Assembly (NCBI GenBank): GCA_030652805.1
Contig: JAUSPT010000032.1
Span: 109,992-173,991, forward strand
Direction of reading: 5' to 3'
DNA length: 64,000 nucleotides
Origin: a bacterium
GTDB taxonomy: Bacteria > JAHJDO01
This document shows, piece after piece, positions 26,312-42,147 of this stretch; the first letter of the stretch is position 1; each line of letters begins with the position of its first letter. The notes under the pieces were generated by a model. The model did not search any database. It saw only the letters and a program-made list of their open reading frames with translations, and had not been told where the DNA came from. The translations under genes were made by a program, and so were the position numbers.

Positions 26312-28639
26312 CTATTGCGGAGGTCTAAACTTCTGGATTCTGCTATTGATAAGTTGACGTCTATTTCCAGTATCAGTTACATAAACATATCCTTTTGAGT
26401 CAAAAGCTATGCCGGTTGGTGAATTAAATTGACCGTCACCTCCCCCACGGCTTCCCCACTTAGTTATATAATTGCCGCTTGCATCAAAGACCTGAATCAT
26501 ATTTGCAGCACTAACTACAAACATATAGCCATTATTTATAGCTATTTTTTGCGGCCGCTGCCCAAGTCTACCGAACTTTAATAGAAAATTCCCTGCACTG
26601 TCAAACTTCTGAACATTGCCTAATTTATAATCCAGAGCATACACATTTCCTGATTCATCTGCTGCTACATCCCATATATAGCTAAACTGCGAATTGCCCG
26701 CGCCGCGTTTGCCCCAGGCAGTCAAATAGTTCCCATCTTTATCAAATTTTTGTATTCTGTAATGCCGGGTGTCTGCCACATAAACATTCCCCTCTTTATC
26801 TACTGCCACACCACGGGGTTGGTCAAGTTGACCTTTGCCATGCCCCCGCTTCCCAATGCTTGCAACCAACGTCCCTTCCGGACTAAACTTATTAATGGAA
26901 TATGTGGACATATTACAAATATAAACATTGCCCTCTTTATCAATATCAATATCCATTGGTCTGCCAATATCCTTATTCTGCCAGGCTGCCAAAAGATCCC
27001 CTTTGGGACTGAGTTTAAGGACACTGCTGTTTTGCTTGCCTACTGTATCTATTACATAAATATTATCTGAATTATCAATTGTTATACCCTGAATAAAATT
27101 TATCTGCGTATTCTGGCCAATAACACTATCAAATCTAAACAGTCCTCCTATTGGAATCTTCTTGCCGACAGGCCAAATCACTTTGTCTTTATCTACCTTA
27201 GCTAATTTCTCTTGCTTTTTCTGCTCCTTCTCCTCTACTCGTTCTTTAGGCTTTGCTTTTGCCTGCATTTCTGCTCTAATAATTCCCTCCATGGCAAGAC
27301 GTTTATACTCTCTGGCTTCTATATTGTCAGGAGAAAGCTCCAGAACAGCTTCAAAATTTTCTATGGCTAATTTGTATTCACCGGAATTTTGCGCGCCTAA
27401 GTTGAAATGTATCTTTCCCCTGGTAAGACTTGACTTTATCTTCTCTTCATTTTTCTTTCTCATCTCCACCAATCGCGAATCTTCTGCTTCAAGGACCTTT
27501 TTCTTTTCCGGCTCTTCTTCTTTAGTAACGACAGGTTTCTGCGATTCTATGTCTTTAGCGATTGTTTCTTCTACTTTCTTTTCCGCTGTTTTTACTTTAT
27601 CAATAGTGGACTTTTCAACAACATGCGGAGAAGGAATGTCTTTTTTGCCGGTACTTATTGCTATGTAAATACCAATAATTATAACCACTAACAAAACTGC
27701 TGGAACAATAGCCTTGATTGGTATCTTTGTTTTCTTAACAATATCCTTTGCCATAACAGTGACTCCTGCATCTCCAGGAATAGCTACCGTTTTGCCATCA
27801 GCTGTAGCAGGCTGACGAAGAAGCCTCTTAAGGAGTTGTATAACATCATTCATATCCTGATAACGCTGATTCTTATCTTTTTTCATGCACTTTAATACCA
27901 TTTCTTCTGTTTCAAGAGATATCTTGGGATTTTTAGCGCGCGGGCTGGGAATATCCTCATGCAGGTGTTTATAAGCAGTTGCAAATGGATCCTTGCCTTT
28001 AAAAGGGAGTTCCCCGGCTAACATGCGGTATGAGAGAACTCCAAAAGCATACATATCAGATTTGGAATCAACACCCGTGCCCTTGACCTGCTCAGGGGAC
28101 ATGTATTCCGGAGTTCCTATACTCATCCCTGTTTTGGTTTTAACGCTTGAATCCTGCACTTTGGCAATACCAAAATCCATTACCTTTATACTGCCGTCCG
28201 CTGCAATCATGATATTGCCGGGCTTAACATCGCGGTGAACAACTCCATGCTTATGAGCGTAGGAAAGAGCCATTCCAACCTGCTGCAGGATTTCTAAAGT
28301 AAAATCCAATGGAAGCGCTTTCTTTCTCTTTAACAACTCATCCAGTGTCTCGCCTTCAATGTACTCCATAATAATAAAATAATTGCCTTCCAACTGTTCA
28401 GTATCATATACTTGTATAATATTACGGTGATTCAGCTTGGCCACAGATAAAGCCTCCTGCTTGAACCTTGTTACAAAATCCTTATCTGAGGCTAGATTTT
28501 GAGGCAACATCTTCATAGCTACAGGACGATTAAGAGAAATCTGAATTCCCTTATACACAATCCCCATACCGCCTTCCCCAATCTTTTCTACAATCTTATA
28601 CTTGCCTACAATCTTCCCAACTAAATCTTCTTTTGACAT
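26312..28639 (-). CDS. Ser/Thr protein kinase with TM segment, TPR-like linker and C-terminal NHL-repeat beta-propeller
   Basis: GEGGMGIVYKG, VAMK, HRDVKPGNIM, DFGIAK, GTPEYMSPEQ. TM segment AIVPAVLLVVIIIGIYIAI. Repeated NHL units (P.GVAVDKEGNVYVADT...RIQKF). Confidence 0.92.
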   Translation of the reverse strand: MSKEDLVGKIVGKYKIVEKIGEGGMGIVYKGIQISLNRPVAMKMLPQNLASDKDFVTRFKQEALSVAKLNHRNIIQVYDTEQLEGNYFIIMEYIEGETLDELLKRKKALPLDFTLEILQQVGMALSYAHKHGVVHRDVKPGNIMIAADGSIKVMDFGIAKVQDSSVKTKTGMSIGTPEYMSPEQVKGTGVDSKSDMYAFGVLSYRMLAGELPFKGKDPFATAYKHLHEDIPSPRAKNPKISLETEEMVLKCMKKDKNQRYQDMNDVIQLLKRLLRQPATADGKTVAIPGDAGVTVMAKDIVKKTKIPIKAIVPAVLLVVIIIGIYIAISTGKKDIPSPHVVEKSTIDKVKTAEKKVEETIAKDIESQKPVVTKEEEPEKKKVLEAEDSRLVEMRKKNEEKIKSSLTRGKIHFNLGAQNSGEYKLAIENFEAVLELSPDNIEAREYKRLAMEGIIRAEMQAKAKPKERVEEKEQKKQEKLAKVDKDKVIWPVGKKIPIGGLFRFDSVIGQNTQINFIQGITIDNSDNIYVIDTVGKQNSSVLKLSPKGDLLAAWQNKDIGRPMDIDIDKEGNVYICNMSTYSINKFSPEGTLVASIGKRGHGKGQLDQPRGVAVDKEGNVYVADTRHYRIQKFDKDGNYLTAWGKRGAGNSQFSYIWDVAADESGNVYALDYKLGNVQKFDSAGNFLLKFGRLGQRPQKIAINNGYMFVVSAANMIQVFDASGNYITKWGSRGGGDGQFNSPTGIAFDSKGYVYVTDTGNRRQLINSRIQKFRPPQ

Positions 28640-28645
28640 AACTAA

Positions 28646-30619
28646 TCACCTATGTTTTTTAATTTGTTTTTTGGCTTTTATGTAATACTCATCGTCAGGA
28701 GACGCAATCTCCAGTACCTGCTTCCATTTTTCTACAGCTCTATTGATATTAATATCCTTAAGAGTGTATCCTTGAATGTATAATTCCCTGGCTTTCTCCT
28801 TTATATGAACCTGAAGCTCGTTAATGTTCTCCAGCGCTTCTTTATGATCAGGCTCTACTGTTAAGACAAACTGAAATTCCAAAAGAGCTTCCTTAAATTT
28901 TTCTTCCTGAACAAAATTCTTGCCTTTCTCCATGTGCTGATGAAGTGTTTCTATTAGATAAGGCCTCACTGTTTTAATATACTGGATAGCCTCTGCATGA
29001 TAGAAATTATCTCTGTCCTGTTCCAGAGAAAGCACCTGCCTCCACTCATCAACAGCTTTCATAAGCTGCTGACTGGCGGAAAAAGACATGCCTCTGTCAA
29101 ATGCCTGAGTAACATCCTTTACTTTATCCAGAAACTCCTGCGCCTCTGTATAATCTTTGTTTATATCTAAGACCATTTGCATTAACTCAATGGCTTGAGA
29201 AGCACTTCCTTTTTGATAGAGTTTCTTTGCCTCGTCAAAAAACTTTTCCGCTTTTTGCAGATCTCCAATCTGAGCTACCAATCTTTTGGCTTCATTGGCA
29301 TATTTAGATTGTGCAGATATTTTTTCTAGTTCTACTAAGGCATTCGCATAATTCCCTTTTTCAAAAAACTCCTTCCCTTTTTCAAAGTGTCTAAGAGACA
29401 GCAGCTTATGTTCAATAAGATTAAGCTTTTCCCTTATATGAGCGTATTCAGGTTTTAAATCGAGTGCATTATTTAACTCTGTCTGCGCTTTAAGGAGTTC
29501 CTCAGCAATGATATACTCATCTGCCAGTTTAAGAGCTTTTTGAATCTGGATTTCTTTCTTGGTCTTGTTAAAGTATTCTATTCCTCTGCTATTCTCAGGA
29601 TCCAGGCTCAATACTCTTTCAAACTGGCGCAGAGCATTTTCCCATTGAGCCTTTTGATAAAGTTCAAGACCTCGTGTAAGGTAGCGAGCAATCTCTTCAT
29701 CACCTCTTGATTTTTCCACATAGATCTGCGCATCAAGATTATCCGGATCCATCTGCAAAACTTTGTTAAAAACTTCAAGCGCTTTGATTTTTTGGTCTGC
29801 TTCGTGTAATTTTTTACCCTGTTTGATGAGATTTGCAACAGTATTATCTGAGACCTCAATTATGCCCCTCTTTTCCGGAGAACGAGTTGGAATAAGACTC
29901 ATGATCAATATAATAGCCAAGATGACGCCAAACCCAATTATTCCTAACCTTATGGGTGTTTTTTTCCATGCCTCCACAAGCAGCCCCGCCTCTGAACATG
30001 ACCCCTCTGTTACAAACTTCAGAACAAATTTCCCAACTTTAATTTCATCTCCTTTAGAGAGCGCTTTTTCCTTGATCTTATTATTATTAACAAAAGTCCC
30101 ATTGCTGCTTCCAAGGTCTGCTATTTTATATTGATTATTCTCCTTCTTAACTATGGCATGTTTTCGAGATACTGTCTCATTTTTAAGAACTATTTTATTT
30201 TCTTCAGCCCTGCCAATAGTCAATTCATCTTCGTCCAACTGATACTCCTCTTTAACTCTCGCCCCTTCCATTAACATCAGTCTATATTTTGGAGACGTAT
30301 AAGACCCGGGTGCCATTCTGGTTTTTTCTCCATCGTCACTTTTTAGTTCTAAACTATATTTCCCGATCTGAACAGTATCTCCTTCATTAATGGTCTCTTT
30401 TTCTATTTGTTCCCCATTTACAAAGACTCCATTGGCAGAGTTCAAATCCTGGATAGTCACATTCTCTGCCTTAATTTCTAATTGGGCATGTTGTCTTGAA
30501 ACACTCTTATCAGGAAGAACTATGCGGTTTCCTTCCTTTCTTCCAATGAGATATACTCCGTCTTCCAAAGATAACTCTTGAACTGATTTTTCGTTTTCTT
30601 TAATGATAAAAAATTTCAT
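28646..30619 (-). CDS. Double-FHA, single-TM, multi-TPR protein
   Basis: Two FHA domains (YLIGRKEGNRIVLPDKSVSRQHAQL...SANGVFVNG and LTIGRAEENKIVLKNETVSRKHAIV..SSNGTFVNN). TM segment LGIIGFGVILAIILIMSLI. About 400 aa of TPR-like repeats. Confidence 0.88.
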   Translation of the reverse strand: MKFFIIKENEKSVQELSLEDGVYLIGRKEGNRIVLPDKSVSRQHAQLEIKAENVTIQDLNSANGVFVNGEQIEKETINEGDTVQIGKYSLELKSDDGEKTRMAPGSYTSPKYRLMLMEGARVKEEYQLDEDELTIGRAEENKIVLKNETVSRKHAIVKKENNQYKIADLGSSNGTFVNNNKIKEKALSKGDEIKVGKFVLKFVTEGSCSEAGLLVEAWKKTPIRLGIIGFGVILAIILIMSLIPTRSPEKRGIIEVSDNTVANLIKQGKKLHEADQKIKALEVFNKVLQMDPDNLDAQIYVEKSRGDEEIARYLTRGLELYQKAQWENALRQFERVLSLDPENSRGIEYFNKTKKEIQIQKALKLADEYIIAEELLKAQTELNNALDLKPEYAHIREKLNLIEHKLLSLRHFEKGKEFFEKGNYANALVELEKISAQSKYANEAKRLVAQIGDLQKAEKFFDEAKKLYQKGSASQAIELMQMVLDINKDYTEAQEFLDKVKDVTQAFDRGMSFSASQQLMKAVDEWRQVLSLEQDRDNFYHAEAIQYIKTVRPYLIETLHQHMEKGKNFVQEEKFKEALLEFQFVLTVEPDHKEALENINELQVHIKEKARELYIQGYTLKDININRAVEKWKQVLEIASPDDEYYIKAKKQIKKHR

Positions 30620-31674
30620 CTTTTTCCCTCTGCTGATCCTTTTGCTAAATGTTCCTCTACCTGCTTTAGACGTTTTAGCACTGTTTTATGCCTCTCATCC
30701 TTTCTATCAGATATCAAAGCCATACATATTTTGAGCTCTTTTTTAACCTGTTTCCAATCTTTCACACGAATATCCTTTTCAGCTTCAAATTTATGAATGC
30801 GATATTCGCTGTCCAGGTATTCCTTAGCTTCCTTTAGATTCAGGAGCGTCTGATGGAAATAATCCGGCTTTGGCTCCAGATGTCTCTGATAAGCCAGAGA
30901 CTTTTGATATGCTTCAATTGCCTTATAGGTATTCTCATAACTTATCATGCGTTCATTATAAAGAGCTTCCCCGTATTTAAAAGCCTCTTTTGCTTTATCT
31001 CTAATATTCCCAACGGGTTCACCGGTTCCTCTATCAATTTTTTCTATTATCTGTGGTTTTTTAGCACTTGTCTCCCCCTGGCTTTTTTCGGAAGACTTGT
31101 GCCCTGGCAGAAGCACATAAATTAGACCGGATATTACAGCTGCTATGAGTATAATCTTTGTGATGTTTTTTTTAGCATAAGTTGGATTCTTTATATTGGC
31201 GAGGATTTTTTCTTTAGACTTTTGAGCTTTTTGGGAGATACTGGGTTCTGCTAGTACCTTTCTGGAGACAGGGGTAGGCACAGGTTTAATAGCGAAATAC
31301 TCGGTTTTTCCATCTTGCTCAGATATTTCCTCCCCGACTATCGTTGCACTGGTCTCTCCTGATGAATTAACCTGCTCAGGGATTACTTCAAAAGCGAGAC
31401 CAACTCCTCCAACTTCAATTTTATCACGATCCTTCAACTCCTGACGCGATACTTTCCTGTCATTTACCTTTGTGCCATTCTTGCTCTCCAGGTCAACCAA
31501 TATCAGTTTTTCATCTTCTAAAACTATCTTGGCATGATGACGAGAGACCGTATCATTTCCTTCCAATACAATATTATTATCCTGCACTCTTCCAATAGTA
31601 CAGGGTTCATTATCAAACTCAAAACATTCCCCTGCTTTTAACCCGTTCCTTATAGAGACCTTATATCCTGGCAT
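30616..31674 (-). CDS. FHA-domain, single-TM protein with TPR-like C-terminus
   Basis: CTIGRVQDNNIVLEGNDTVSRHHAKI..SKNGTKVND. TM segment IILIAAVISGLIYVLL. Overlaps neighbours on both sides. Confidence 0.85.
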   Translation of the reverse strand: MPGYKVSIRNGLKAGECFEFDNEPCTIGRVQDNNIVLEGNDTVSRHHAKIVLEDEKLILVDLESKNGTKVNDRKVSRQELKDRDKIEVGGVGLAFEVIPEQVNSSGETSATIVGEEISEQDGKTEYFAIKPVPTPVSRKVLAEPSISQKAQKSKEKILANIKNPTYAKKNITKIILIAAVISGLIYVLLPGHKSSEKSQGETSAKKPQIIEKIDRGTGEPVGNIRDKAKEAFKYGEALYNERMISYENTYKAIEAYQKSLAYQRHLEPKPDYFHQTLLNLKEAKEYLDSEYRIHKFEAEKDIRVKDWKQVKKELKICMALISDRKDERHKTVLKRLKQVEEHLAKGSAEGKR

Positions 31675-32023
31675 TAACCATATCTCCTATACGAACCTGA
31701 GCGCTACTAATGGTGTCAGAGGGAAGTTCCAGCACATGCCGTACGCTTCTTCCTCCAAAAGCCAGCCGAAATGGTTTTAACTGAGATATAGTCTTTACAA
31801 CACAATAATTCTTATCCATAAAAACCACATCAATCGGGAACCTCATAAACCACGTATGTATGGCTTTGCAGTTTTTAATCAGTAATCCCTCTCCAGAATC
31901 AAGTTTAGCGCGTCCAATCAGCCCCTTAGTTCTCATTTGCCATGTATCTGCAACAACCACTCGTTGTCCTAAAATCTGATTATTACCAAAACTGATCACT
32001 ATAGTTGTCTCTCTAGAATCCAC
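31661..32023 (-). CDS. DUF192 (COG1430) family protein
   Basis: RTKGLIGR..L..GEGLLI..CKAIHTWFMRFPIDVVFMD. Confidence 0.75.
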   Translation of the reverse strand: MDSRETTIVISFGNNQILGQRVVVADTWQMRTKGLIGRAKLDSGEGLLIKNCKAIHTWFMRFPIDVVFMDKNYCVVKTISQLKPFRLAFGGRSVRHVLELPSDTISSAQVRIGDMVNARI

Positions 32024-32930
32024 CCTGCAAAAGCTTTATAATGATAGGGCCAAAAAGCATTACAAAAACTGCTGGAAAGATAAATCCTACAAGGGGCAGC
32101 AGCATTTTTACCGGCGCCTGCATTGCTGTTTTCTCTGCTATCTGCATCCTCTTGGTCCGCATCTGATCAGATAAGACCCTGAGTATAGGCCCAAGACTTG
32201 TTCCCAGTTGATCTGCCTGTATAAGCGATGTGCAAATAGCAGAAAGATCCGGCATATTAACTCTGTCTGCCATTGCTTTTAAAGCGTCGCGCCTTGTTGA
32301 CCCAAGCTTAATCTGCTGCTGCATGTGAAAAAGCTCCTCTACAAGTGGGCCTGCTTTCATCTTGTCAACCACTTTATTAATAGCTGCTGAGAAATCCAAT
32401 CCTGCCTCTACTGAAAGAGTTATCAAGTCCAGGCTGTAAGGAAGGCCTCTCCAGATCCCTTTATGCCTTTTCTTAATCTGATCCTTCAACCATTGATCAG
32501 GATAGAAATAAGCAAGCATGAACAGGATAATGTAATACCAAGCAATTTCAATAGACAGCATCTTAAGTATTAAAAGCCCGACGATTGGCGCAAGTATTAA
32601 TAGTAATTCTTTTATAGCCAAAAATTCTAGAGCGCTTATAGCTCCTGGATTTCCAGCTGAGGTTAGTTTTTGCGTGATATTATTCTGATATTCTTTAAGC
32701 CCAAACCGCTCGTGCAATTTCGCTAGTTTCCCGACCCATGGCATTAAGAAGCGATATAATGGATAGGTACGCATAAACTTTTCTCTTTTTTTCTCCAGCT
32801 GACCTAACATATCCAGATCTATCGCCTCCTCTTCCTTCTTCTCAAATAACGAGAGTATTCCTGCGCCTATAAAATAGAAAGCTGTAAAAATAAAAATATA
32901 AATTAGTGCTAAAATTATTATACTACCCAT
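32013..32930 (-). CDS. tadC: Tad pilus platform protein TadC
   Basis: T2SSF-domain membrane protein (LPYSLDLITLSVEAGLDFSAAI). Paired with the tadB-like gene downstream of the CpaF gene. Confidence 0.85.
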   Translation of the reverse strand: MGSIIILALIYIFIFTAFYFIGAGILSLFEKKEEEAIDLDMLGQLEKKREKFMRTYPLYRFLMPWVGKLAKLHERFGLKEYQNNITQKLTSAGNPGAISALEFLAIKELLLILAPIVGLLILKMLSIEIAWYYIILFMLAYFYPDQWLKDQIKKRHKGIWRGLPYSLDLITLSVEAGLDFSAAINKVVDKMKAGPLVEELFHMQQQIKLGSTRRDALKAMADRVNMPDLSAICTSLIQADQLGTSLGPILRVLSDQMRTKRMQIAEKTAMQAPVKMLLPLVGFIFPAVFVMLFGPIIIKLLQGGF

Positions 32931-32935
32931 TTTCC

Positions 32936-32972
32936 CCTTTGTGCCTTTGTGCCTTTGCCACTTTGTTTCTTT
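32936..32972. repeat. Degenerate tandem octamers directly upstream of tadC
   Basis: ccttt GTGCCTTT GTGCCTTT GCCACTTT GTTTCTTT. On the gene strand this is AAAGGCAC repeats ending in the RBS aaggggaaaATG. Confidence 0.7.
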
Positions 32973-32975
32973 ATC

Positions 32976-33830
32976 CTAAACATCAATATTAACAATTTTA
33001 TAAATCAGGAATCCACCTATTAGCTCCAGGAAAACAACTGTTGCAAGAAACGCCCAGCCAATAGCAGAAGTAAACATTATCTTCATTGTTGCCGGGTCCA
33101 GAAAATACATTATTATGCCAAGTCCTATAGGAAGCAAACCTACTACCAATCCCTGCATCTTGCCCTGAGATGTGAGCGCAGCAATCTTGCCATGCATTTT
33201 ATCTCTCTCCCTTATTGTATTTGCAATTCTATCAAATATCTCAGAAAGATTACCCCCTAATTGCCTGGAGATATTAATTGAGGTGACAACCAATTCCATC
33301 TGTTCACTGGGCATTCTCTTTCCCAATCTTTTCAACGCTTCTTCCATTGAAACCCCTAACTTAGTAGACCGGATAACCAGACTAAATTCCTGAGACAAAG
33401 GAGCCTCAGATTCCTTAATTAAAAAATCCAGTGCTTGTTGCAGACTTAAACCTGCCTTAAGAGAATTTGACACCGTTGTTAAAGCCCCTGTTAATTGAGT
33501 GTCAAACTTTTTCTTGCGATTCTTCTTTAACTGTCTGAGATAAATTCTTGGCAGAGAGAATCCAACGGCTCCAAATGCTAAGCATATTAGCAAACTATGA
33601 CTGAGCAAGTAACCAACCATTGCCATAACTAGAACACCAAGAATACTAAAATAAGCAATCTTTTCTGCTGGAATAAAAACAAACATCTCATCCAGCTCTT
33701 TTTCAGTTCCTGCAGCTACTTTCTTTTCATACTGTTTAATTCCCTTCTTAAAAGTCTGATAACCTGCCTGCGCCAGTATAAACACTGCTAAAAATGTAAG
33801 CCCAAGTATTAATAGCTCAATTATCTGCAT
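32976..33830 (-). CDS. tadB: Tad pilus platform protein TadB
   Basis: T2SSF domain (LTGALTTVSNSLKAGLSLQQAL) and TM segments at both ends. Confidence 0.85.
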   Translation of the reverse strand: MQIIELLILGLTFLAVFILAQAGYQTFKKGIKQYEKKVAAGTEKELDEMFVFIPAEKIAYFSILGVLVMAMVGYLLSHSLLICLAFGAVGFSLPRIYLRQLKKNRKKKFDTQLTGALTTVSNSLKAGLSLQQALDFLIKESEAPLSQEFSLVIRSTKLGVSMEEALKRLGKRMPSEQMELVVTSINISRQLGGNLSEIFDRIANTIRERDKMHGKIAALTSQGKMQGLVVGLLPIGLGIIMYFLDPATMKIMFTSAIGWAFLATVVFLELIGGFLIYKIVNIDV

Positions 33831-35530
33831 TATTTTCCAGTCCTCTCTTCTTCAAATATCTTCATATCCAGGTGCATTCCCTTTGCTTCCAACTGAGGAA
33901 CAAAACTTGGAATATTGCCAGTAGCTACAAAAGTTCCCTGCACTTTACCATCCTGGCCAATTCCTGTTTGTTTGAAAACAAAAATATCCTGTAAAGTAAT
34001 GACTTCTCCCTCCATGCCTGTAACTTCAGTCACAGCAATAATCCTGCGGCTTCCGTCACTCAAACGAGACTCCTGAATTATTATGTTAATAGCTGAAGAT
34101 ACCTGTTCTCTGATAGCTCGGACAGGCAGATCCATACCTGACATTAAAACCATAGTTTCCAGACGCGAAAGAACATCACGAGGAGAATTGGCATGAGCAG
34201 TAGTAAGAGAGCCATCATGGCCAGTGTTCATAGCCTGAAGCATGTCCAGAGCCTCTCCACCCCTGCATTCTCCTACCACTATTCTATCAGGACGCATACG
34301 AAGAGCATTCTTTACCAGATCTCTAATAGCAATAGCTCCTTTGCCTTCAATATTTGGAGGCCGGGCTTCCAGAGAAACAACATGCTCCTGCGGTAGCTTA
34401 AGCTCTGCAGCATCCTCAATAGTTACTATTCTTTCGTCTTTAGGAATATAGGAAGACACTACATTAAGCAGTGTTGTCTTTCCTGATCCTGTTCCTCCTG
34501 ATATAATAATGTTCTTGCGTGAAAGCACACATATCTCAAGGAACTTCGCAGTATCTTTATTCAATGTTCCAAAACCTATCAAATCATCTATAGTAAAAGG
34601 AGTTTTGGAGAACTTGCGAATAGTTATACTTGGTCCTTTTAGAGCTAGAGGCGGAATGATCGCATTTACTCTGGATCCATCCTTTAATCTTGCATCTACC
34701 AGTGGCATGCTTTCATCTATTCTGCGGCCAATAGGCCCTACTATCCTCTCTATCACAGCCATAACCTGTTCATCGCTGGCAAAGGTTTTCTCGCAGAGCT
34801 GAAGCTTGCCTTTCTTTTCAATATAAATCTGATCCTTTCTGTTAACCATTATTTCTGTTACATCATCATCCTTTAACAGATCCTCCAGAGCTCCCAAACC
34901 CAGCGCTTCATCCAGCACGTCCTTTACCAAATCCTCTATATTCACCCGCTTAGGAATAGAGTCAGCCATTTCCTTAATTATGCCTCTGGTAGCTTTTTCA
35001 GTGCGGCTCCTGACTTCCTGCTCCTTTCCCTTTTCAAATGTTAAACTCTTTAAGTCAATACGCTGAATGAGCTGCTTATGAATTTTGATTCTTATATCAG
35101 AAAGCTGGCTAACCTTCCCTTTAGAAGCTGCTTTATCAGAAGGCATGGATGCAGGCGCTGGTACACGAACTTGTTTTACCTCTGTCTTTTCATCCTCATC
35201 TCTATCTTTTTTAGCTTCCTGCAACAAGCTGCCCTCAGAAATACCTGCATCTTCTAAAACCATGCTCAAGTGCCCTATTTTGACTTCTTCTCCCAGCGGC
35301 CAAAGCTCTTCCTTAGCTATTTTTTTCCCATTAAGATATGTGCCATTGCCACTGTCCAAATCTTTAATATATACCTGATTATCCTTCAGTCTGAGACTGG
35401 TATGATGTCTTGAAGCCCTTGGATCAGAAATCATCAAATCACAGTCTTTCTCCCTGCCAATGGTTACAGCTTCCCCCTCCAATTTAAAAATTCTTTCCTT
35501 ACCTGAAGCTTCTTTAATAACTATTCTCAT
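33830..35530 (-). CDS. cpaF: FHA-domain / CpaF(TadA) secretion ATPase fusion
   Basis: N-terminal FHA ([34 protein letters not shown]). A linker follows, then the CpaF core ([15 protein letters not shown] Walker [13 protein letters not shown] Walker [13 protein letters not shown] His box). Confidence 0.92.
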
Positions 35531-35533
35531 TCA

Positions 35534-36892
35534 CTATTCTCCCTGCAGTAATTGCATAGCCTTTCCTGTTTTTTGGGCAGGAATAAAGGTCGGAGTAGTA
35601 GGAGTCACCAGAACTATAATCTGTTTCTTCTCCTTTTCTGCCTGCTTCTTGGAAAATAACAGCCCCAGTACTGGAATTTGCCCTATACCAGGAGTGTACT
35701 TTTTGAAATCTGAAGCAAGCACGTCTGTAACACCTGAAAGAATCACTGACTGGCCCGGTTTAATAACTACATCAGACTCAGAACGATAAACCTTAAGTCC
35801 TGTTCTATCCTCGACTGTAGGATCAACCTGACTGACCTCCAGATTGATATGCATAGTTACCTCTCCAAAACTGTCCACCTCCGGCTTAACCTTAAGCAAC
35901 ATTCCATACTTCTTCCATTTAACATCTGCAGAACCACTTCCTGCTACTTTATATCCAATTTCGCCTCCATGTTCAAAAACAGCTTCTCCGCCGCTTAATG
36001 CAGACTGATGCAAAGACTTCCTTATAGTAGCATTCCCCTTAGAATGAGTAAAATTTAATGCCTTGGTCAGGTTATATCCTATATTCCAGCTGGGTCCGGC
36101 TCCCCCTGTACTTGCAAGACCTGCTCCGCCAGCTAATGTGCCTCCAAGCAGATTCATTCCCATATCCTTTCCTGCTACAGCGTTTATTTCTGCAAATTGG
36201 ACATCTACTTCTATCATAACCTTTTTTACTTTTAGAAGATTGATAACGTTTTCAGCAAATGCGCCTGCTATTTTTTCAACCTCCTTGGACTCTTCTTCTC
36301 CCACTACAAAACCTCTCAGAATAACCCTGTTTCCAATAATCTTAACATTCACATTTGGGATCCCGATATTCTTTTTAATTTCCTCTGCCAGAATTTCATT
36401 ATGAATCCCAGTGCGTATCTTCACCAGATTTATTACCTCTGGGTATGCTGCAGCAACTTTTTCTACTCTTTCTTTATCAGAAGCAGTCAAAACGGATCCA
36501 TCAATAACCACTTTACCCCCGACTACCTTGACTTTTATTCCTTCTACATCGCTTAATAACTGACGAACTTCTTCAGCAAACTGCCTTGGGTCTCTTGAAA
36601 TAACATAGATAGCATGGGTAACTTTTTCCTCTTTGCTGTCCCATATAATAAGATCTGTAGTTCCAACTTTTATGCCTGTAATAATTATCTGCTCACCACC
36701 AGCAACCACCTGAACATTAGCTACTTTATCATCTCCAACTGAAACACGCGCCAACTTCTTCACATCCACTACCTGCTGCTGCCCAACAGAAACAGTAATC
36801 GCTTTCTGTCCATAGACAACGCTTCCCATAAATAGTATGCAGATCGCTGCTGTCCATACTCCGACCAATCCTGTCTTTTGCTTAGTGTTCAT
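35534..36892 (-). CDS. cpaC: Tad secretin CpaC/RcpA
   Basis: Signal peptide, pilus N-terminal domain (ITVSVGQQQVVDV...VGTTDLIIWD), BON-like repeats, secretin core (GIGQIPVLGLLFS....IIVLVTPT). Confidence 0.9.
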   Translation of the reverse strand: MNTKQKTGLVGVWTAAICILFMGSVVYGQKAITVSVGQQQVVDVKKLARVSVGDDKVANVQVVAGGEQIIITGIKVGTTDLIIWDSKEEKVTHAIYVISRDPRQFAEEVRQLLSDVEGIKVKVVGGKVVIDGSVLTASDKERVEKVAAAYPEVINLVKIRTGIHNEILAEEIKKNIGIPNVNVKIIGNRVILRGFVVGEEESKEVEKIAGAFAENVINLLKVKKVMIEVDVQFAEINAVAGKDMGMNLLGGTLAGGAGLASTGGAGPSWNIGYNLTKALNFTHSKGNATIRKSLHQSALSGGEAVFEHGGEIGYKVAGSGSADVKWKKYGMLLKVKPEVDSFGEVTMHINLEVSQVDPTVEDRTGLKVYRSESDVVIKPGQSVILSGVTDVLASDFKKYTPGIGQIPVLGLLFSKKQAEKEKKQIIVLVTPTTPTFIPAQKTGKAMQLLQGE

Positions 36893-36919
36893 GTTTTTTC
36901 CTCCTTGTTTTTGTTTTAA

Positions 36920-37750
36920 TCAGAATTGTTCAATAGTTTTAACTCCGCCCTTAATTACTTCCACCTTGATTCTGTCCTGACGCTGGATAGTAAGTTTTTT
37001 AACCTGCTCCAGCTGCAAAATAGAACTCATTGTAATTTTCGGCATGTCTGGTATCACCTCTAAGTCTTCCGGATTGCGCAGAACAAGTGTTATTTTCCCT
37101 CTTGCTTGAGCAAAGATAATCATTTCCGCCTCCTGGAGCGTTAAAGAGAGAGTTACAGTATTATATCCTCTCCTTAGCATTGCTGCTGTAGAGTGCGTTT
37201 CCTCTACATCCACTCTTTTGCGTCCTACTTCCTGCCCTACAGCCAGAACAGTTACATTCTGAAGAAGAGTGAGAGTTGTTATCCCTGCTGCTTTTTCTCC
37301 TTCCACTGTAAAATTTGCAGCAAGATCTACATGATCATTCGGCTGGATATGTCCACCTACCCCTGTTACTTCATCTACAGAAATGGTTACTGCTCTCTCT
37401 TTCTGCCTTATGAGCGGAGATAATCCTTCCATCTTCTCCATCCCAAGACAGAGCCATGTTAACTGCTGACCTTTTTTTAGTAAAAACAACGTCTTCTGAC
37501 CTTGTATTATCTCAATATCATCAGGGTTTAATGCATTGGGATCTTTAAACTTACGAGGCACCTGCGAAATTTCTACCATTCCCTTAGAAATTTTCTCTTT
37601 TGCCTTTATATCCTTTGCTGCTACAAGAACGCTTACCAGCTCCTTTCCCTTAAAAATTGGTCTTGTAACACCTTGAATATAAAAATGCACCATGACTATC
37701 GCTAAAAGACCTAATACAACTCCCATTATTAATGAAGCTTTATTCTGCAT
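36920..37750 (-). CDS. cpaB: Flp pilus assembly protein CpaB/RcpC (SAF domain)
   Basis: N-terminal TM, then VLVAAKDIKAKEKISKGMVE (SAF). The C-terminal TLSLTLQEAEMIIFAQARGKITLVLR is typical of CpaB. Confidence 0.88.
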   Translation of the reverse strand: MQNKASLIMGVVLGLLAIVMVHFYIQGVTRPIFKGKELVSVLVAAKDIKAKEKISKGMVEISQVPRKFKDPNALNPDDIEIIQGQKTLFLLKKGQQLTWLCLGMEKMEGLSPLIRQKERAVTISVDEVTGVGGHIQPNDHVDLAANFTVEGEKAAGITTLTLLQNVTVLAVGQEVGRKRVDVEETHSTAAMLRRGYNTVTLSLTLQEAEMIIFAQARGKITLVLRNPEDLEVIPDMPKITMSSILQLEQVKKLTIQRQDRIKVEVIKGGVKTIEQF

Positions 37751-37768
37751 ATCTACCTCCCTTTTTTA

Positions 37769-38527
37769 TTAACTTATTTTAATTATTGTAGCATAGTTAT
37801 TCGTTTTGTCATTATTTTCATCTGGAAAAACAATCAAACATTTTCCATCCTTTTTCTGAGCGCTGAGTAAATCGCCACTATCATCCAGCTTCCACCCATT
37901 CATTTTTAATCGGCTCTGATAAAAGAACTTCTGTGTGGTTGAGGAAGCAAGGCTTTTATACATTAGCACTTTATAATTTACGCCTCCAACTCCAAGCTCA
38001 AAGCTGAGCGCCTCAGAATTTAGCGGGTAGATAGGTATATCCTTGATAAAATCCTCCTCAACATTTGATTCTCTCCATTCCTCAAAACTTAAACAAAAAA
38101 TATGGCTTCCCGAGAGGTTGGTATCCCTCATAGGCAAGACAGCTATGCCAAGACTTGGCGATTTCAATTTTTTAGCCATAATAAACTCACTGCCGCCTAT
38201 ATTCTTCCTGCAATGAAGACCAAAATTTCTCGTTTTCAGGTCATTTGAAAATTGTTTTATTAGTGTTTGAGCGGATAATGGGGAATGGTATATGCCAATT
38301 AAAGCGGGCTTAGAGTTAATCTTCACACGATAAGACTTGCCTGCCATATCTCTCATCATATCCGGAAGATTGAAACGTTTTTGGTTAATCTTATCCTGCA
38401 GTTCATAAATAAGCCCATAAACCTTATCTTGTCGACCGCCCTTTATTAAACCGTAACAACTCAAAGCAATAGTCAAAATAGCTATTAGAAGAACCTTCCC
38501 TGTGATTTTTGTTACTTGCCTTATCAT
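37769..38527 (-). CDS. Hypothetical membrane-anchored protein inside the Tad operon
   Basis: 252 aa, N-terminal TM (VLLIAILTIALSCYGL), no recognisable motif. Abuts the TadG-like gene with no intergenic gap. Confidence 0.55.
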   Translation of the reverse strand: MIRQVTKITGKVLLIAILTIALSCYGLIKGGRQDKVYGLIYELQDKINQKRFNLPDMMRDMAGKSYRVKINSKPALIGIYHSPLSAQTLIKQFSNDLKTRNFGLHCRKNIGGSEFIMAKKLKSPSLGIAVLPMRDTNLSGSHIFCLSFEEWRESNVEEDFIKDIPIYPLNSEALSFELGVGGVNYKVLMYKSLASSTTQKFFYQSRLKMNGWKLDDSGDLLSAQKKDGKCLIVFPDENNDKTNNYATIIKIS

Positions 38528-39463
38528 TTAGTGCACCATTAGTATCCTATCAAAACCTGTTTTGTCAAATTTTGCCTTGTAGTTTGGATCGGGAAGTATA
38601 TTGAATTTAACTTTGCTTCCGATATGCCCTTTTGTTTTATCTTTATCCTCCTTCCATAAGCTTTCTATCCATGAGAAAATAAGATCAGCACCTTTAGTAA
38701 CTTTAGGAATTTCTCCTCCAAGACTTCCTCCATATGGAACAGCCTTGGCTGTTGTATAAATAGATGGTATATTAATACCCAGAAGAGAGCCGCCTATCAG
38801 GACTGGTTGAGAACCCTTGTAAGCAAGAGAAAAGGTATAGACATCTTCTCCGCCTGTCATAAATCCCAACCAGCCACTGGCGCAAAGAAAATACTTAGCC
38901 CTGTCTACATTTAACCAGCATGGAATTAACGAGGTGAGAGAGCTCCAGCCAAAATTCCCTCCTTTTATATCATCGTAAAAGCTTTTACCGTCATCATAAA
39001 TTCCTTTTACGTCCTCTATACTGCTCATATTTACAAGACGCTCTGCCAAAGCAGTCGGCAGGGGAACAGCTGCATCAGCCTTATTAGCTCTGCCATATGT
39101 AAACACCTGAGTAATAGCAATAACAGGAACAGCATACTTCATAACATCCTGAATGGTTTGGACAATATTAGTAATAGTAAAATTCACATCTCCAGTGAAC
39201 CAGAGTTTAATGAGGTCAATAATAAATGCAGGAACCCATAGAATATTGAGCATTGCTATTACATTAAGTCCCCTTGCCTGCCATACTGCGCCTGCCATAG
39301 CAGCAGAATCAGTTGCATTCTGCATTCTGATGCGCCAGCTTACAAGCTGTCCCACGTCCACAACCAGCATTATGAACATAACCAGCACCAGAAGCATCAG
39401 CGCTGCAAAAACGGCAGCCTGCCCGCCGTTATCTTTTCTGAGCTTATGAATTTGAATAAACAT
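38528..39463 (-). CDS. TadG-like pseudopilin/anchor protein (Tad N-terminal domain)
   Basis: GGQAAVFAALMLLVLVMFIMLVVDVGQLVSWRIRMQNATDSAAMAGA. I place the start at 39463 (TAATG overlap with the upstream stop). The track ORF extends to 39505. Confidence 0.75.
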   Translation of the reverse strand: MFIQIHKLRKDNGGQAAVFAALMLLVLVMFIMLVVDVGQLVSWRIRMQNATDSAAMAGAVWQARGLNVIAMLNILWVPAFIIDLIKLWFTGDVNFTITNIVQTIQDVMKYAVPVIAITQVFTYGRANKADAAVPLPTALAERLVNMSSIEDVKGIYDDGKSFYDDIKGGNFGWSSLTSLIPCWLNVDRAKYFLCASGWLGFMTGGEDVYTFSLAYKGSQPVLIGGSLLGINIPSIYTTAKAVPYGGSLGGEIPKVTKGADLIFSWIESLWKEDKDKTKGHIGSKVKFNILPDPNYKAKFDKTGFDRILMVH

Positions 39464-39951
39464 TATAAGAGACTCGCTATTTCCCCTAACTGTTGTTTTA
39501 TCCACTTGATTATTTCATCCTTGGAGAAGCAGAACCCTAGAAAACGGCAGCTCCCCTTCACTGTAGTTCCTCCACCAAATATGGCTGATAAATAAGGTCC
39601 TGCTGGCACAGTATATGTTACATCCATCTTCGCGCTTCCTTTCGCCATCACATACGAGAGAAAACTTGCAAGGTAATTAGTTCCCGGGATAAAACTCATA
39701 TCCGGGAGCCCTGCTTCTCTTAACAAATCAAAGCTGGTATTGACATTTCCATGACCAAAGAATACAGCACCGGCTCCTCCGCCATCTCTCGTTTCCTTTA
39801 GAGCTCCTTCTCTGGCTGCTATGTAAACCTTTGATTGAGCCACCATAACCTTTCCAAAGTGAACAACAATCATCATAATGAGTATAAAAATCGGCAGGAC
39901 AATTGCTGCTTCTACTGCTGCCTGACCACTGTTAGATCTAATTAGCTTCAT
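39463..39951 (-). CDS. TadE/TadF-like minor pilin
   Basis: MKLIRSNSGQAAVEAAIVLPIFILIMMIVV (TadE N-terminal motif). The start at 39951 is 1 nt after the upstream stop. The track ORF extends to 39966. Confidence 0.78.
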   Translation of the reverse strand: MKLIRSNSGQAAVEAAIVLPIFILIMMIVVHFGKVMVAQSKVYIAAREGALKETRDGGGAGAVFFGHGNVNTSFDLLREAGLPDMSFIPGTNYLASFLSYVMAKGSAKMDVTYTVPAGPYLSAIFGGGTTVKGSCRFLGFCFSKDEIIKWIKQQLGEIASLL

Positions 39952-39952
39952 T

Positions 39953-40456
39953 CTAGTCCTCCACATTTATATTACAGCTTTGAGTAACTGGAAGATAATA
40001 TCTATCGCCATCCTGAATCCCAATTATTCTGCCAACCATGGGCATATTCAGTTTAAACTTGTATTTGACAGTAGTGGTATTACCCGATTGGCTAACTGTA
40101 GTATTAGATTGAGCATAAGAATACTGCTTAATTATTGTTGCTAGGTTCTGTGCCCAATCAGGAATGGGAATTTTTTCAAGAATTTCAGAAATTGCCGAAT
40201 CTAGAACCCCTCCCGAAGATTGACTGGAAATAGGTATCAGCGCAATGCTGGCAGCAAGTTTTGCTTTGTCCGCATCCTGATGCACAGAATATGAACGAGC
40301 TGCTGAAAAGGCAGCATAATTAGTTACTATATTGGCAGTTGCTATCAAAGCAAGCTGCATAATAGCCATGGCAAAGAGAATTAAAACAGGCATAACAATG
40401 ACAAATTCAACCATTGACTGGCCTCTGTTATTTATTCGCCTAAAGCATTTCTTCAT
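39953..40456 (-). CDS. TadE/TadF-like minor pilin
   Basis: NRGQSMVEFVIVMPVLILFAMAIMQLAL. Confidence 0.78.
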   Translation of the reverse strand: MKKCFRRINNRGQSMVEFVIVMPVLILFAMAIMQLALIATANIVTNYAAFSAARSYSVHQDADKAKLAASIALIPISSQSSGGVLDSAISEILEKIPIPDWAQNLATIIKQYSYAQSNTTVSQSGNTTTVKYKFKLNMPMVGRIIGIQDGDRYYLPVTQSCNINVED

Positions 40457-40956
40457 CTAAAAATCCATGCAATAAAGGTTCCAACACTCAGAGCCGCTCC
40501 ATAAGGAATCCTTTCACTGTTAGACAGCTTTAAAGCTTCCGTTTTTAACCCGGGCATAATAAAACTCAAAATAAGACGAAAAATATTTTTTAGCCCTCTC
40601 CAGAATGTCCCTTTCCATATCATTACCGCTATTGCCAGTATTCCGCCTGTCAGGATTCCATAAAAACAAGCATTCAAGATAAATGGATACCCTCCAACAG
40701 CTCCAACAGCAGCCATTAATTTAACGTCTCCTCCTCCTACTCCGCCAAAGACAAATACTATGGCAAAAACACAAAACCCAATAGCGAGCCCCAGCATACT
40801 GTTAACCAACCCGCCAACGCCATGATTCCAAACGTTAAGCAACAGCCCTACCGCCACAGCAGGAAAGGTTACACAATTGTATATCTTGTGTGTAATCAAG
40901 TCTGTAACCGCTGATACCAGCAAAAGCAATATTAGTAATATGTCTGAAAATGCCAT
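40453..40956 (-). CDS. cpaA: Prepilin peptidase CpaA/TadV (A24 family, no methyltransferase domain)
   Basis: 167 aa, polytopic. Two Asp contexts (SAVTDLITHKIYN and GVGGGDVKLMAAVG). Confidence 0.88.
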   Translation of the reverse strand: MAFSDILLILLLLVSAVTDLITHKIYNCVTFPAVAVGLLLNVWNHGVGGLVNSMLGLAIGFCVFAIVFVFGGVGGGDVKLMAAVGAVGGYPFILNACFYGILTGGILAIAVMIWKGTFWRGLKNIFRLILSFIMPGLKTEALKLSNSERIPYGAALSVGTFIAWIFR

Positions 40957-40964
40957 AAAGTTAA

Positions 40965-41165
40965 TTATTGCGCTGATTCTAAATCATCAGCTGCTTTTTC
41001 AACTTTTGCTGATAACTTGTCTCTAAAATACTGGAACGCAACTATAGCAGCAATGGCTATTAACACCACTATCAGAATATATTCTGTCATGCCCTGCCCT
41101 TCTTCTCCGAATATAATCCCTTTCATTAAGTTTTTAAGCTTCTTCATTTTGTCACCCCCTTTCAT
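40965..41165 (-). CDS. flp: Flp/Fap-family pilin 1
   Basis: EEG/QGMTEYILIVVLIAIAAIVAF carries the Flp processing motif G/xxxxEY. The real start is probably the internal MKKLKNL. Confidence 0.85.
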   Translation of the reverse strand: MKGGDKMKKLKNLMKGIIFGEEGQGMTEYILIVVLIAIAAIVAFQYFRDKLSAKVEKAADDLESAQ

Positions 41166-41169
41166 TCAT

Positions 41170-41349
41170 TTATGGAATAGGTAAACTAATAAGACTTGCG
41201 ATTCTATTGTAATAAGTTTTTAGCGCCTTACGAAACATCTCAAAACAACCTGCCAGACAAAGAACAGCTATTACTGTTACAAGAACATACTCTGTCATCG
41301 CTTGCCCTTTTTCGTCCAGCAACAAGTTTTTTAAACTCTGTACAAACAT
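41170..41349 (-). CDS. flp: Flp/Fap-family pilin 2 (59 aa, below the ORF-track length cut-off)
   Basis: Own translation: MFVQSLKNLLLDEKGQAMTEYVLVTVIAVLCLAGCFEMFRKALKTYYNRIASLISLPIP. It has the same G/Q[GA]MTEY motif as pilin 1. ATG at 41349 and stop at 41170-41172. Confidence 0.8.
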   Translation of the reverse strand: MFVQSLKNLLLDEKGQAMTEYVLVTVIAVLCLAGCFEMFRKALKTYYNRIASLISLPIP

Positions 41350-41355
41350 TAATTG

Positions 41356-42147
41356 CTACCTATAAGCTTCTACCAAAACAACTGTAATGTTATCAACTCC
41401 TCCAGCTTTATTAGCATAGTCTATCATTTCTTCTGCTGCTTTTGAAAGGTTATCTATATGTTTTTTTATAATATCCTCCATTGTCTTTCTTTCCAGCATA
41501 CCGCTCAGCCCATCGGAACATATGAGAAAAATATCTACAGGAACAATATCCTCTTCCTGTAGATCAACCTTGACCTCTTTCTCACTACCCAGAGCCCGTG
41601 TAATAACATTCTTCCAGCGATGCTGTTTGGCTTCCTCTTTCGTTATTACATTCTCTTTAAGTTGCTCATTAACCCATGAATGATCCTCTGTAATCTGCTT
41701 CAGCCTTCCATTTCTCATTAAATACACCCTGCTGTCGCCTACATGCACAACATACCCTTTCGCCTCAGCAATGGATAACCCTGCTATAGTTGTTCCCATT
41801 CCTTTAAGTTCAGGGTTAGAAAATGACATCTCATATATTTTCTTATTAGCAATTCGTACTGCGGTAAGGAGCTTATTAGCCTCAGGCGCTAGTTCTGGGT
41901 TCATCTCAAATGGCCAGGTAATATCATTGTCTTTGGCTGTGCGTTCAATAAAGGCCTTTATTAATTCGATAGATTTGCGACTTGCTACATCACCTGCTGC
42001 ATGCCCACCCATGCCATCAGCTACAAGATAAAGCTTCAGATCATCACTGACCAGAAAGCTATCTTCATTTAGCTTGCGCACTCTGCCTAAATCTGATAAG
42101 CCGTATGCTCTGAACTTCATCTCTAATTTTACTCCTGTAACTGCCAT
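41356..42147 (-). CDS. PP2C-family Ser/Thr phosphatase
   Basis: GRVRKLNEDSF, VADGMGGHAAG, GTT, LICSDGL, GGVDNITVVLV. Confidence 0.92.
   Translation of the reverse strand: MAVTGVKLEMKFRAYGLSDLGRVRKLNEDSFLVSDDLKLYLVADGMGGHAAGDVASRKSIELIKAFIERTAKDNDITWPFEMNPELAPEANKLLTAVRIANKKIYEMSFSNPELKGMGTTIAGLSIAEAKGYVVHVGDSRVYLMRNGRLKQITEDHSWVNEQLKENVITKEEAKQHRWKNVITRALGSEKEVKVDLQEEDIVPVDIFLICSDGLSGMLERKTMEDIIKKHIDNLSKAAEEMIDYANKAGGVDNITVVLVEAYR

Follow-up and report, generated by a model that had tools for sequence, protein, structure and literature searches.

A Kil-type Tad pilus was described in Myxococcus in 2021, a Tad-like apparatus with which prey is killed in a contact-dependent manner (PMC8460266, PMC12075869). 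It is distinguished by an ATPase fused to FHA, a surplus of FHA proteins, a short secretin lacking N0 and missing Tad accessory proteins, with TadZ reported among the absent components (PMC8460266); cluster 1 of M. xanthus runs in the order MXAN_3104, KilA, KilC, KilF and KilD, the Kil clade was defined from KilF, KilG, KilH and KilB, and KilD was tabulated as a cytoplasmic multidomain protein (PMC8460266). The Kil FHA proteins were proposed to act in a contact-triggered phospho-cascade akin to that of PpkA and Fha1 in type VI secretion (T6SS) (PMC8460266), for which gating by kinase, PP2C phosphatase and FHA protein has precedent (PMC8460266, PMC3953482). In the open-access literature, the papers on Kil and on the Bdellovibrio Tad system and the reviews name no kinase or phosphatase for the system, nor was a description of Ser/Thr kinases or PP2C inside Tad loci found there. 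The present analysis concerns a block of 17 open reading frames (ORFs), all located on the minus strand at positions 26312-42147 of a 64,000-nucleotide stretch (hereafter the window) of contig JAUSPT010000032.1 from the bacterial assembly GCA_030652805.1. With moderate confidence, this block is read as specifying a Kil-type Tad pilus together with a writer, an eraser and readers in cis (a receptor Hanks kinase, a PP2C phosphatase and four FHA domains) that would determine pilus assembly or activity.

Predatory bacteria employ Kil as a weapon that was recognised only recently, and the contact trigger of its assembly is the question to which the locus speaks: it points to the type of kinase and phosphatase that Kil could use, makes the question of Kil signalling testable, and presents receptor kinases with periplasmic repeat domains as candidate Kil triggers. 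A first-pass annotation of the same stretch had regarded the block as the best candidate in the window for an undescribed multi-component system; this does not hold, since an FHA-CpaF fusion accompanied by several FHA/TPR proteins is the published Kil signature (PMC8460266). The class of machine is known and the T6SS-like idea has already been published for Kil; new relative to the open-access literature are the embedded kinase and PP2C, their retention in a module from promoter to stop codon, their recurrence beside FHA-type Tad loci in several phyla and the conserved threonines of the linkers.

Kinase, phosphatase and FHA domains

Domains were assigned by Pfam and NCBIfam searches, transmembrane (TM) segments by a hydropathy scan, and motifs were read from the protein sequences. 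The receptor Hanks kinase (26312-28639; Pfam Pkinase 5.9e-59, NHL 8.8e-24) is composed of a kinase region (residues 1-275, Pkinase match 14-261), a juxtamembrane segment, a TM segment (residues 310-328), a K/E-rich linker and an NHL region (residues ~511-775), and its kinase motifs are all intact (GEGGMG corresponding to GxGxxG, VAMK, HRDVKPGN, DFG and SPE). The NHL region of about 265 residues matched the six-blade NHL propeller of TRIM71 with 180 bits and the sensor domain of Mycobacterium tuberculosis PknD with 69 bits; six repeats of the GxxYVxD type were discerned by eye, four by a strict regular expression. For the kinase domain, the strongest similarity was to Stk1/PknB (360 bits), and the PknD model was matched as well. 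The block kinase thus has a PknD-like architecture (kinase, single TM segment, six-blade NHL propeller; compare PDB 1RWI); it differs from PknD in its genomic context, in its 175-residue K/E-rich linker and in its placement in a diderm periplasm. Diderm markers are the secretins, PagL and lipid A acyltransferase encoded in the window as well as BamD in the relatives. Because the cell is diderm, the propeller is predicted to be periplasmic, so that it could not itself touch a prey or host surface; the extracellular contact sensor proposed in the first-pass annotation was rejected on this ground.

The opposite end of the block is occupied by the gene of a Stp1/IreP-family PP2C Ser/Thr phosphatase (41356-42147; 254 residues if started at 42120; Pfam PP2C 3e-14), which scored 257.8 bits in the NCBIfam model Stp1_PP2C_phos (equivalog cut-off 230) and contains all metal-binding motifs (RKLNED, DGMGG, GDSR, SDGL, DNIT). 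The existence of a Tad-specific PP2C subfamily was considered and rejected, as the closest homologues outside the lineage (~50% identity) are not linked to tad.

Four FHA domains are distributed over three proteins. In the motor ATPase (33830-35530, 566 residues; Pfam FHA 2.7e-18, T2SSE 2.9e-62), an N-terminal FHA domain (residues 22-79) is joined by an intrinsically disordered region to a CpaF/TadA core (T2SSE, residues 211-486) that matched the solved CpaF of Caulobacter crescentus with 412 bits; the protein is a class III CpaF and the equivalent of KilF. A protein of 352 residues (30616-31674; Pfam FHA 1e-17, Yop-YscD_cpl) is built of an FHA domain, a linker, one TM segment (residues 171-189) and a periplasmic helical domain, a layout as in YscD/PrgH; among solved structures its FHA domain is nearest to GarA/OdhI, and homologues of its C-terminal domain were found in loci L023 and L005 of the comparison described below. 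The remaining two FHA domains belong to a KilD-like protein of 657 residues (28646-30619; Pfam two FHA 3.9e-42 plus TPR), which carries one TM segment (residues 225-243) between the FHA pair and a periplasmic TPR region and is referred to as the double-FHA protein. The domain calls of the first-pass annotation for the block were borne out by Pfam, NCBIfam or motifs throughout; only the TPR region it had assigned to the 352-residue protein went undetected.

All four FHA domains retain the phosphothreonine-binding signature GR..SxxH..NG, and the Arg, Ser, His and Asn binding residues are invariant or nearly so in 23 KilD-like proteins. Among solved structures, GarA, OdhI and Bdellovibrio DgcB, all of them phosphothreonine readers, come closest to the block domains; every one of the four also matched Pfam Yop-YscD_cpl. 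With catalytic and phosphothreonine-binding residues intact, kinase, phosphatase and the four FHA domains all appear to be functional, and the complete phospho-signalling module that had been postulated for the block is indeed encoded.

Layout and retention of the block

The intergenic spacing within the block ranges from -43 to +45 base pairs (bp), with seven neighbouring pairs that abut or overlap. The same 17 genes were present in an independent public gene call for the identical contig (Logan SRR13727525), and the single co-directional block of the first-pass annotation was thereby recovered. In the public call, six of the 17 genes (PP2C, Flp2, TadE1, TadE2, TadG and DUF192) start slightly later: the PP2C and Flp2 genes probably start at 42120 and 41147, respectively, and the starts of the other four probably also lie slightly downstream. 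A candidate sigma-70-like promoter (TTGACA-18-TAGAAT; 42156-42185, minus strand) is situated in the 51-bp gap 5' of the PP2C gene; it is a consensus match, predicted only, and reached the top score (11/12) among the sites in 25000-44900. The 17 genes are predicted to constitute a single operon.

Close relatives of the block are confined to one uncultured lineage: the double-FHA protein is represented there by eight clusters at 83-100% identity, the next homologue following at 27%, and the PP2C by proteins of 85-93% identity, followed by 54%. Three relatives, designated A (contigs L082 and L087), B (L092) and C (L093), are ~84-91% identical. The blastn homology to four related contigs spans 26313-42189, i.e. 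from the base after the kinase stop to four bases past the -35 box. Because homology ends at these two points, the conserved unit extends from the predicted promoter to the last stop codon. The entire gene order from PP2C to kinase is retained in relative A, and PP2C is the first gene of the block in L087 and L088. The flanks are different: on the 5' side, relative A contains dnaN, gyrB and a divergent HNH gene versus genes for an AMP-ligase and an oxidoreductase in the window, and the 3' side is formed by methylase, MutH and type II secretion system (T2SS) genes in the window, by Peptidase_MA, BamD and S20 genes in L082 and by PilZ, YicC and gmk in L093. In relative C, the genes of the FHA, the double-FHA and the kinase protein are still contiguous despite the insertion of mobile genes at other points of the block. 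Synteny of the signalling genes with the tad genes, which the first-pass annotation had named as a test, is hence observed across the relatives.

The arrangement is not a chance juxtaposition, because the unit is retained in relatives with different flanks and kinases are enriched beside FHA-CpaF loci elsewhere (see below). As both flanks differ in the relatives, a mobile island was considered and is not claimed; no integrase or repeats were seen at the block, for which no further search was made. The insertions of L093 are located at 868-2962 and 6813-8857, inside the tad block, and comprise toxin-antitoxin-like genes (DUF4160/DUF2442 and nucleotidyltransferase) together with genes for an ORF6N protein, a PD40/Tricorn propeller protein and a methyltransferase. 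In relative B, a tandem kinase copy of 483 residues (L092, 12017-13468) is placed before the full-length kinase; its kinase domain is 92% identical, TM segment and linker are kept, and the NHL propeller is lacking.

In comparison with the relatives, no part of the block is more conserved than the kinase domain (94-98% amino acid identity); the machine core reaches 89-95%, PP2C 89%, the orphan 252-residue protein described below 84-89% and the NHL domain 82-92%. Identity is 69-87% in the minor pilins, with TadE2 (69-85%) among the most diverged proteins and the TadG-like protein at 69-87%. Given the high identity of kinase domain, PP2C and NHL domain versus that of the minor pilins, all three appear to be under purifying selection.

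Comparison with Kil and other described systems

A search for FHA-CpaF in one genome per species returned 80 loci, with no close relative among them (best identity 53-64%), and the window proteins were compared with the ORFs of these loci. Three window proteins, namely ATPase, secretin and double-FHA protein, had their best matches in the Myxococcaceae loci L001, L012 and L076 (ATPase 1e-188; secretin 1e-55, others 1e-38 or weaker; double-FHA protein 1e-24 to 4e-29), whose gene order of FHA protein, peptidase, secretin, FHA-ATPase and double-FHA protein is that of Kil cluster 1; the link to Myxococcus Kil made in the first-pass annotation was therefore apt. The KilD-position proteins of these loci (L012 11289-13511, L076 11790-14018, L001 2115-4370) are strongly predicted to contain a TM segment immediately behind their second FHA domain (FHA2).

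The window locus shares with Kil the FHA-fused CpaF (KilF), a double-FHA and TPR protein encoded after the motor (KilD) with a TM segment after FHA2 in both, further FHA proteins of the MXAN_4649/4648 type, TadE/TadG-like minor pilins, a secretin of pil_N, BON and Secretin domains without N0, and the lack of TadZ/CpaE. It differs from Kil in that it is one contiguous operon, whereas Myxococcus Kil is divided into two separate clusters, in the additional DUF192 protein, receptor Hanks kinase and PP2C, and in its occurrence in another, uncultured deep lineage. In a neighbour-joining tree of 82 CpaF cores, the window lineage was placed beside the Myxococcaceae clade with a bootstrap value of 16/100, for the ATPase only; the badly trimmed Persicimonas sequence was left out of the bootstrap analysis. 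The architecture is accordingly described as Kil-type, and membership of the Kil clade is not claimed because of this bootstrap value.

The GyrB of relative A is 86-100% identical within the lineage, 65% identical to unclassified bacteria and NPL-UPA2, and 59-62% identical to Elusimicrobiota and Omnitrophota. As its GyrB is at most 65% identical to anything named, the lineage is judged to be deep, uncultured and outside known predatory clades. Rfam and tRNA scans of the window yielded no match of taxonomic use. Kil-like architecture hence occurs outside Myxococcota, Bdellovibrionota and Bradymonadales, its supposed limits.

With the T6SS threonine phosphorylation pathway (PpkA/PppA/Fha1 of Pseudomonas aeruginosa; PpkA/TssL/Fha of Agrobacterium tumefaciens, PMC3953482), the locus shares the writer-eraser-reader logic, a bitopic Hanks kinase with periplasmic sensor, and PP2C and FHA readers encoded within the cluster of an envelope-spanning machine. 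It deviates from this pathway in the machine, a Tad pilus, in FHA domains that form part of the motor ATPase and of two membrane scaffolds versus one soluble Fha, in a sensor that is an NHL propeller and not vWA, and in the lack of TagQRST homologues. None of the proteins scanned across ~9-63 kb of the window matched a family of the T6SS core (TssA-M, Hcp, VgrG); the locus would resemble the T6SS pathway in its working without being a member of it. The T6SS analogy of the first-pass annotation thus stands as far as kinase, PP2C and FHA domains in one cluster are concerned, while the idea had already been put forward for Kil (PMC8460266).

Canonical Tad/Cpa systems (Caulobacter Cpa, Aggregatibacter Tad) resemble the block in the G/xxxxEY site of Flp, the A24 peptidase, CpaB, CpaC, CpaF, TadB/C and TadE/G; they differ from it in that the block is without detected TadZ/CpaE or TadD and holds a kinase, a phosphatase and additional membrane proteins with FHA domains. 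Class III FHA-CpaF has been reported mainly from Betaproteobacteria, with no regulator assigned (PMC12019362). A machine of the type IV filament superfamily is also governed by Ser/Thr kinases, phosphatase and FHA protein in the case of the Sulfolobus archaellum, which is controlled by the FHA protein ArnA, ArnB, the kinases ArnC/D and PP2A (PMC12852372); ArnA was among the PDB matches of the window FHA domain. Unlike the window locus, the Sulfolobus network is archaeal, its soluble regulators act on archaellum expression and components, and they are neither motor-fused nor encoded in one operon.

Kinases and phosphatases at other FHA-type Tad loci

Besides the genome set, a metagenome set of 80 CpaF loci was obtained with an FHA-CpaF alignment, and kinases were counted in flanks of up to 10 kb on each side, many metagenome contigs being short. 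In the genome set, a kinase was present near 4 of 21 FHA-CpaF loci and near none of 59 non-FHA loci; the corresponding counts in the metagenome set were 3/18 and 0/62. Pooled over the 160 loci, 7/39 FHA-CpaF loci compare with 0/121 non-FHA loci (Fisher p = 3e-5, in a test that ignores phylogeny and includes many short contigs).

The composition of these loci varies. L029 and L130 contain a Sel1-repeat kinase, CpaB/C, FHA-CpaF, TadB/C, an FHA protein, a double-FHA protein and PP2C; in L129, a PP2C-like protein and a tandem-kinase protein are encoded directly 5' of CpaB-CpaC-FHA-CpaF; in L020 and L107 (Oligoflexia type), the genes of an FHA protein, a double-FHA protein with TPR and PP2C precede Flp and TadV directly; and L085, which holds the 27%-identical homologue of the double-FHA protein, comprises FHA, double-FHA-TPR and TPR proteins and a PEGA-domain kinase. 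Kinases also adjoin the FHA-CpaF loci L010, L013, L022 and L100. The flanks of the Myxococcaceae and Persicimonas loci contained no kinase; in Kil cluster 1 of L012, neither kinase nor phosphatase was detected, and two large upstream ORFs were without Pfam match. According to these gene arrangements, the FHA-type Tad loci of several lineages have independently acquired kinases with unrelated sensors (Sel1, PEGA, cNMP, tandem kinase) and PP2Cs. Such repeated recruitment of Hanks kinases and PP2Cs into FHA-type Tad operons would represent a genomic signature of a dedicated phospho-switch.

Proposed phospho-switch and its alternatives

In the proposed mechanism, the Hanks kinase would sense a periplasmic cue by means of its NHL propeller (possibly a disturbed envelope, a ligand from the cell wall or of glycan nature, or the condition in which the pilus or the TPR proteins are), autophosphorylate its juxtamembrane segment (conserved DGKT) and phosphorylate the linker threonines of CpaF (DEKTEV), the 352-residue protein (KTEYFAI) and the KilD-like protein (EKTRMAP). 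Through binding of these linker phosphothreonines by the four canonical FHA domains, the motor ATPase and both FHA scaffolds of the inner membrane would gather at the TadB/C platform, which would license pilus assembly; the Stp1-type PP2C would reset the system. Phospho-gating of the machine is likely on this reading; what serves as signal and as substrates, whether the effect is activation or inhibition and to what use the pilus is put we infer from the genes only.

Candidate target sites were found as threonine motifs that are invariant among the orthologues in otherwise variable disordered linkers: DEKTEV(K/R)QV is conserved in the CpaF linker, D(G/E)KTEYFAI in the linker of the 352-residue protein and DG(K/R)T(V/M)A(I/V)P in the juxtamembrane segment of the kinase, and the KilD-like protein carries EKTRM(A/V)P between its FHA domains, without variation in eight orthologues. 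Oligoflexia-type KilD-like proteins contain AKTRVTP and EETRLAP at the same distance of 34-36 residues before the GR of FHA2, and the KilD-position proteins of three Myxococcaceae genera contain RATRAMP, so that a T-R-x-x-P motif recurs in KilD-like linkers across phyla; Bradymonadales-type proteins have x-T-L-[FY]-I instead. The linkers of Myxococcaceae KilF start with a conserved M-T-R. These threonines are to be regarded as leads and not as findings.

Several observations weigh against a dedicated switch. The threonine motifs were defined after inspection of the data, and the KilD-like proteins of L029, L130 and L096 are without such a motif. In addition to the limits of the enrichment test given above, no kinase was present within 10 kb at 32 of the 39 FHA-CpaF loci, including Myxococcaceae Kil cluster 1: cis linkage of a kinase to FHA-CpaF is the exception, a minority state. 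The PP2C is an ordinary enzyme of the Stp1/IreP family and the kinase domain is generic and PknB-like; PP2C homologues of ~50% identity in other phyla adjoin dnaG or unrelated genes. Moreover, a second Hanks kinase (60645-61442, minus strand; 265 residues, kinase domain only) is encoded in the window beside heptose-pathway-like genes (PfkB kinase, cytidylyltransferase, HAD phosphatase), and because of it kinases may be frequent in the genome and cross-talk or pleiotropy possible. The similarity of the two enzymes to Stk1/PknB and to Stp1/IreP (above the cut-off), the scattered neighbourhood of the PP2C homologues, the rarity of cis kinases and the second kinase would all suit a general pleiotropic pair of the Stk1/Stp1 type, acting on envelope, division or metabolism and merely placed at the ends of a Tad operon, with the Tad FHA domains as some of its many clients or as no clients. 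This explanation is nevertheless considered unlikely: kinase and PP2C stay with the tad genes though both flanks change, the homology being bounded by the kinase stop and the promoter; the independent association of kinases with unrelated sensors and of PP2Cs with FHA-type Tad loci speaks for a link to the pilus; four FHA domains are encoded within the same operon; and the block kinase, as the second one in the window indicates, is not the only kinase of the genome.

A different objection concerns the FHA domains themselves. Those of the related YscD/PrgH ring proteins of the type III secretion system (T3SS) act structurally, without phosphothreonine, and the block domains might likewise be ring or scaffold modules, with kinase and phosphatase regulating something else, e.g. 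transcription or pilin processing. The Yop-YscD_cpl match of every block FHA domain, the PrgH-like annotation of the M. xanthus homologue MXAN_4649 and the SctD-like topology of FHA, TM segment and periplasmic part would be in line with this. On the other hand, all four domains keep the Arg, Ser, His and Asn binding residues, near-invariant in the KilD-like proteins, their closest solved relatives GarA, OdhI and DgcB are true phosphothreonine readers, and conserved threonine motifs lie in the adjoining linkers. Since the binding residues are intact, a purely structural role is the least probable of the explanations and is rated as rather remote.

The use of a phospho-gated pilus is a separate matter. 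An ordinary adhesive or surface-sensing Tad pilus (biofilm, particle attachment), phospho-regulated and not a device for killing or host attack, has about even chances, and killing is no more likely a use than adhesion or surface sensing: class III FHA-CpaF is common in Betaproteobacteria and other non-predators (PMC12019362; loci L009, L014, L032), domain scans of the block and its neighbourhood revealed no genes for toxins, immunity or T3SS*, and GyrB places the organism in no known predatory clade. In contrast, the ATPase, the secretin and the double-FHA protein are each most similar to Myxococcaceae Kil proteins, and a KilD-like protein together with an FHA-TM protein in the absence of TadZ constitutes the Kil signature, a counter-evidence of similarity only, with the ATPase tree at the low bootstrap value given above. 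A more far-reaching version of the phospho-gated Kil-type pilus, namely a self-contained, relocatable machine for attacking or attaching to cells, with kinase and PP2C as the missing Kil writer and eraser in general and the T-R-x-x-P threonine of KilD and KilF linkers as a switch residue shared from Myxococcus to the window lineage, is put forward as speculative and appears doubtful.

Further components of the Tad machine

The machine is a Tad (type IVc) pilus, for which Flp and A24 peptidase, CpaF, TadB/C, CpaB, CpaC and TadE/G were all found. All genes of this section are on the minus strand. Downstream of PP2C, two Flp-type prepilins are encoded that are paralogues of each other (8e-8): prepilin 1 (41170-41349, 59 residues) displays a G/QAMTEY processing motif followed by a hydrophobic helix and had no Pfam match, and prepilin 2 (40965-41165, 66 residues, or 60 if started at 41147) displays a G/QGMTEY motif followed by a hydrophobic helix and matched Pfam Flp_Fap below the cut-off (1.8e-4). 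The TadV/CpaA prepilin peptidase (40453-40956, 167 residues; Pfam Peptidase_A24 1.9e-17) is an A24 enzyme without methyltransferase domain. It is followed by the TadE-like minor pilins 1 (39953-40456; Pfam TadE 2e-10) and 2 (39463-39966; Pfam TadE 3.5e-12) and by a TadG-like minor pilin or tip protein (38528-39505; Pfam Tad, PF13400, 5e-11). The gene of the orphan protein (37769-38527, 252 residues) abuts the TadG-like gene with a gap of 0 bp; the protein contains an N-terminal hydrophobic segment (residues 10-28) with a possible lipobox (LSC), gave no match in Pfam, NCBIfam or PDB sequence searches, and its AlphaFold2 single-sequence model was unusable (mean predicted local distance difference test score, pLDDT, 44.6).

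CpaB/RcpC (36920-37750; Pfam RcpC 1.8e-27 plus SAF) reached 164.8 bits in TIGR03177 (cut-off 71), and the CpaC/RcpA secretin (35534-36892, 452 residues) contains pil_N, BON and Secretin domains, with no Secretin_N/N0 match in the Pfam search, a KilC-like layout. The platform proteins are TadB (32976-33830, 284 residues; Pfam T2SSF 7e-21), whose gene overlaps the CpaF stop codon by 1 bp, and TadC (32013-32930, 305 residues; Pfam T2SSF 1e-16). None of the 17 block proteins matched a ParA/MinD-type family in Pfam, as would be expected of TadZ/CpaE, and no TadD pilotin was detected in the block. The TadC gene is followed by that of a DUF192 protein (31661-32023; probable start 31999, 112 residues; Pfam DUF192 3.7e-19). 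Among unrelated Tad loci, a large proportion (L004, L006, L007, L009, L013, L023 and others) likewise have a DUF192 gene directly 3' of TadC, which suggests that DUF192 is an unrecognised regular Tad component.

Neighbouring genes in the window

The genes surrounding the block are likewise on the minus strand. A complete T2SS-like gsp cluster (10104-22742) is located just 3' of the Tad block and comprises AAA_22 (GspA-like), GspD, GspE, GspF, pseudopilins, GspJ, GspK and a PilM and PilN fusion; in L085, too, the FHA and kinase genes are immediately followed by GspG and GspH. One protein of the cluster (14607-16475, 622 residues) carries an N-methylation motif and a T2SSG match only at residues 484-615; its N-terminal extension of ~480 residues is unusual for GspG and could be due to a mis-called start or a fusion. 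Between the T2SS cluster and the Tad block, an N6/N4 DNA methylase and a MutH-like endonuclease are encoded (24700-26180) that may form a Dam/MutH-type or restriction-modification pair and are absent at that position in the relatives.

A hybrid-cluster protein is encoded in the window and suggests that the organism is an anaerobe. A 3-dehydroquinate synthase II gene lies beside that of a DeoC-family aldolase (57624-59426), an archaeal-type shikimate entry in a bacterium. On the 5' side of the block, a lipid-type gene set (42199-48673) comprises genes for an AMP-dependent ligase, an FAD oxidoreductase, a 441-residue protein without family and two ketoacyl-synthase-like proteins, and is followed by PagL and the lipid A acyltransferase at 49094-50619.

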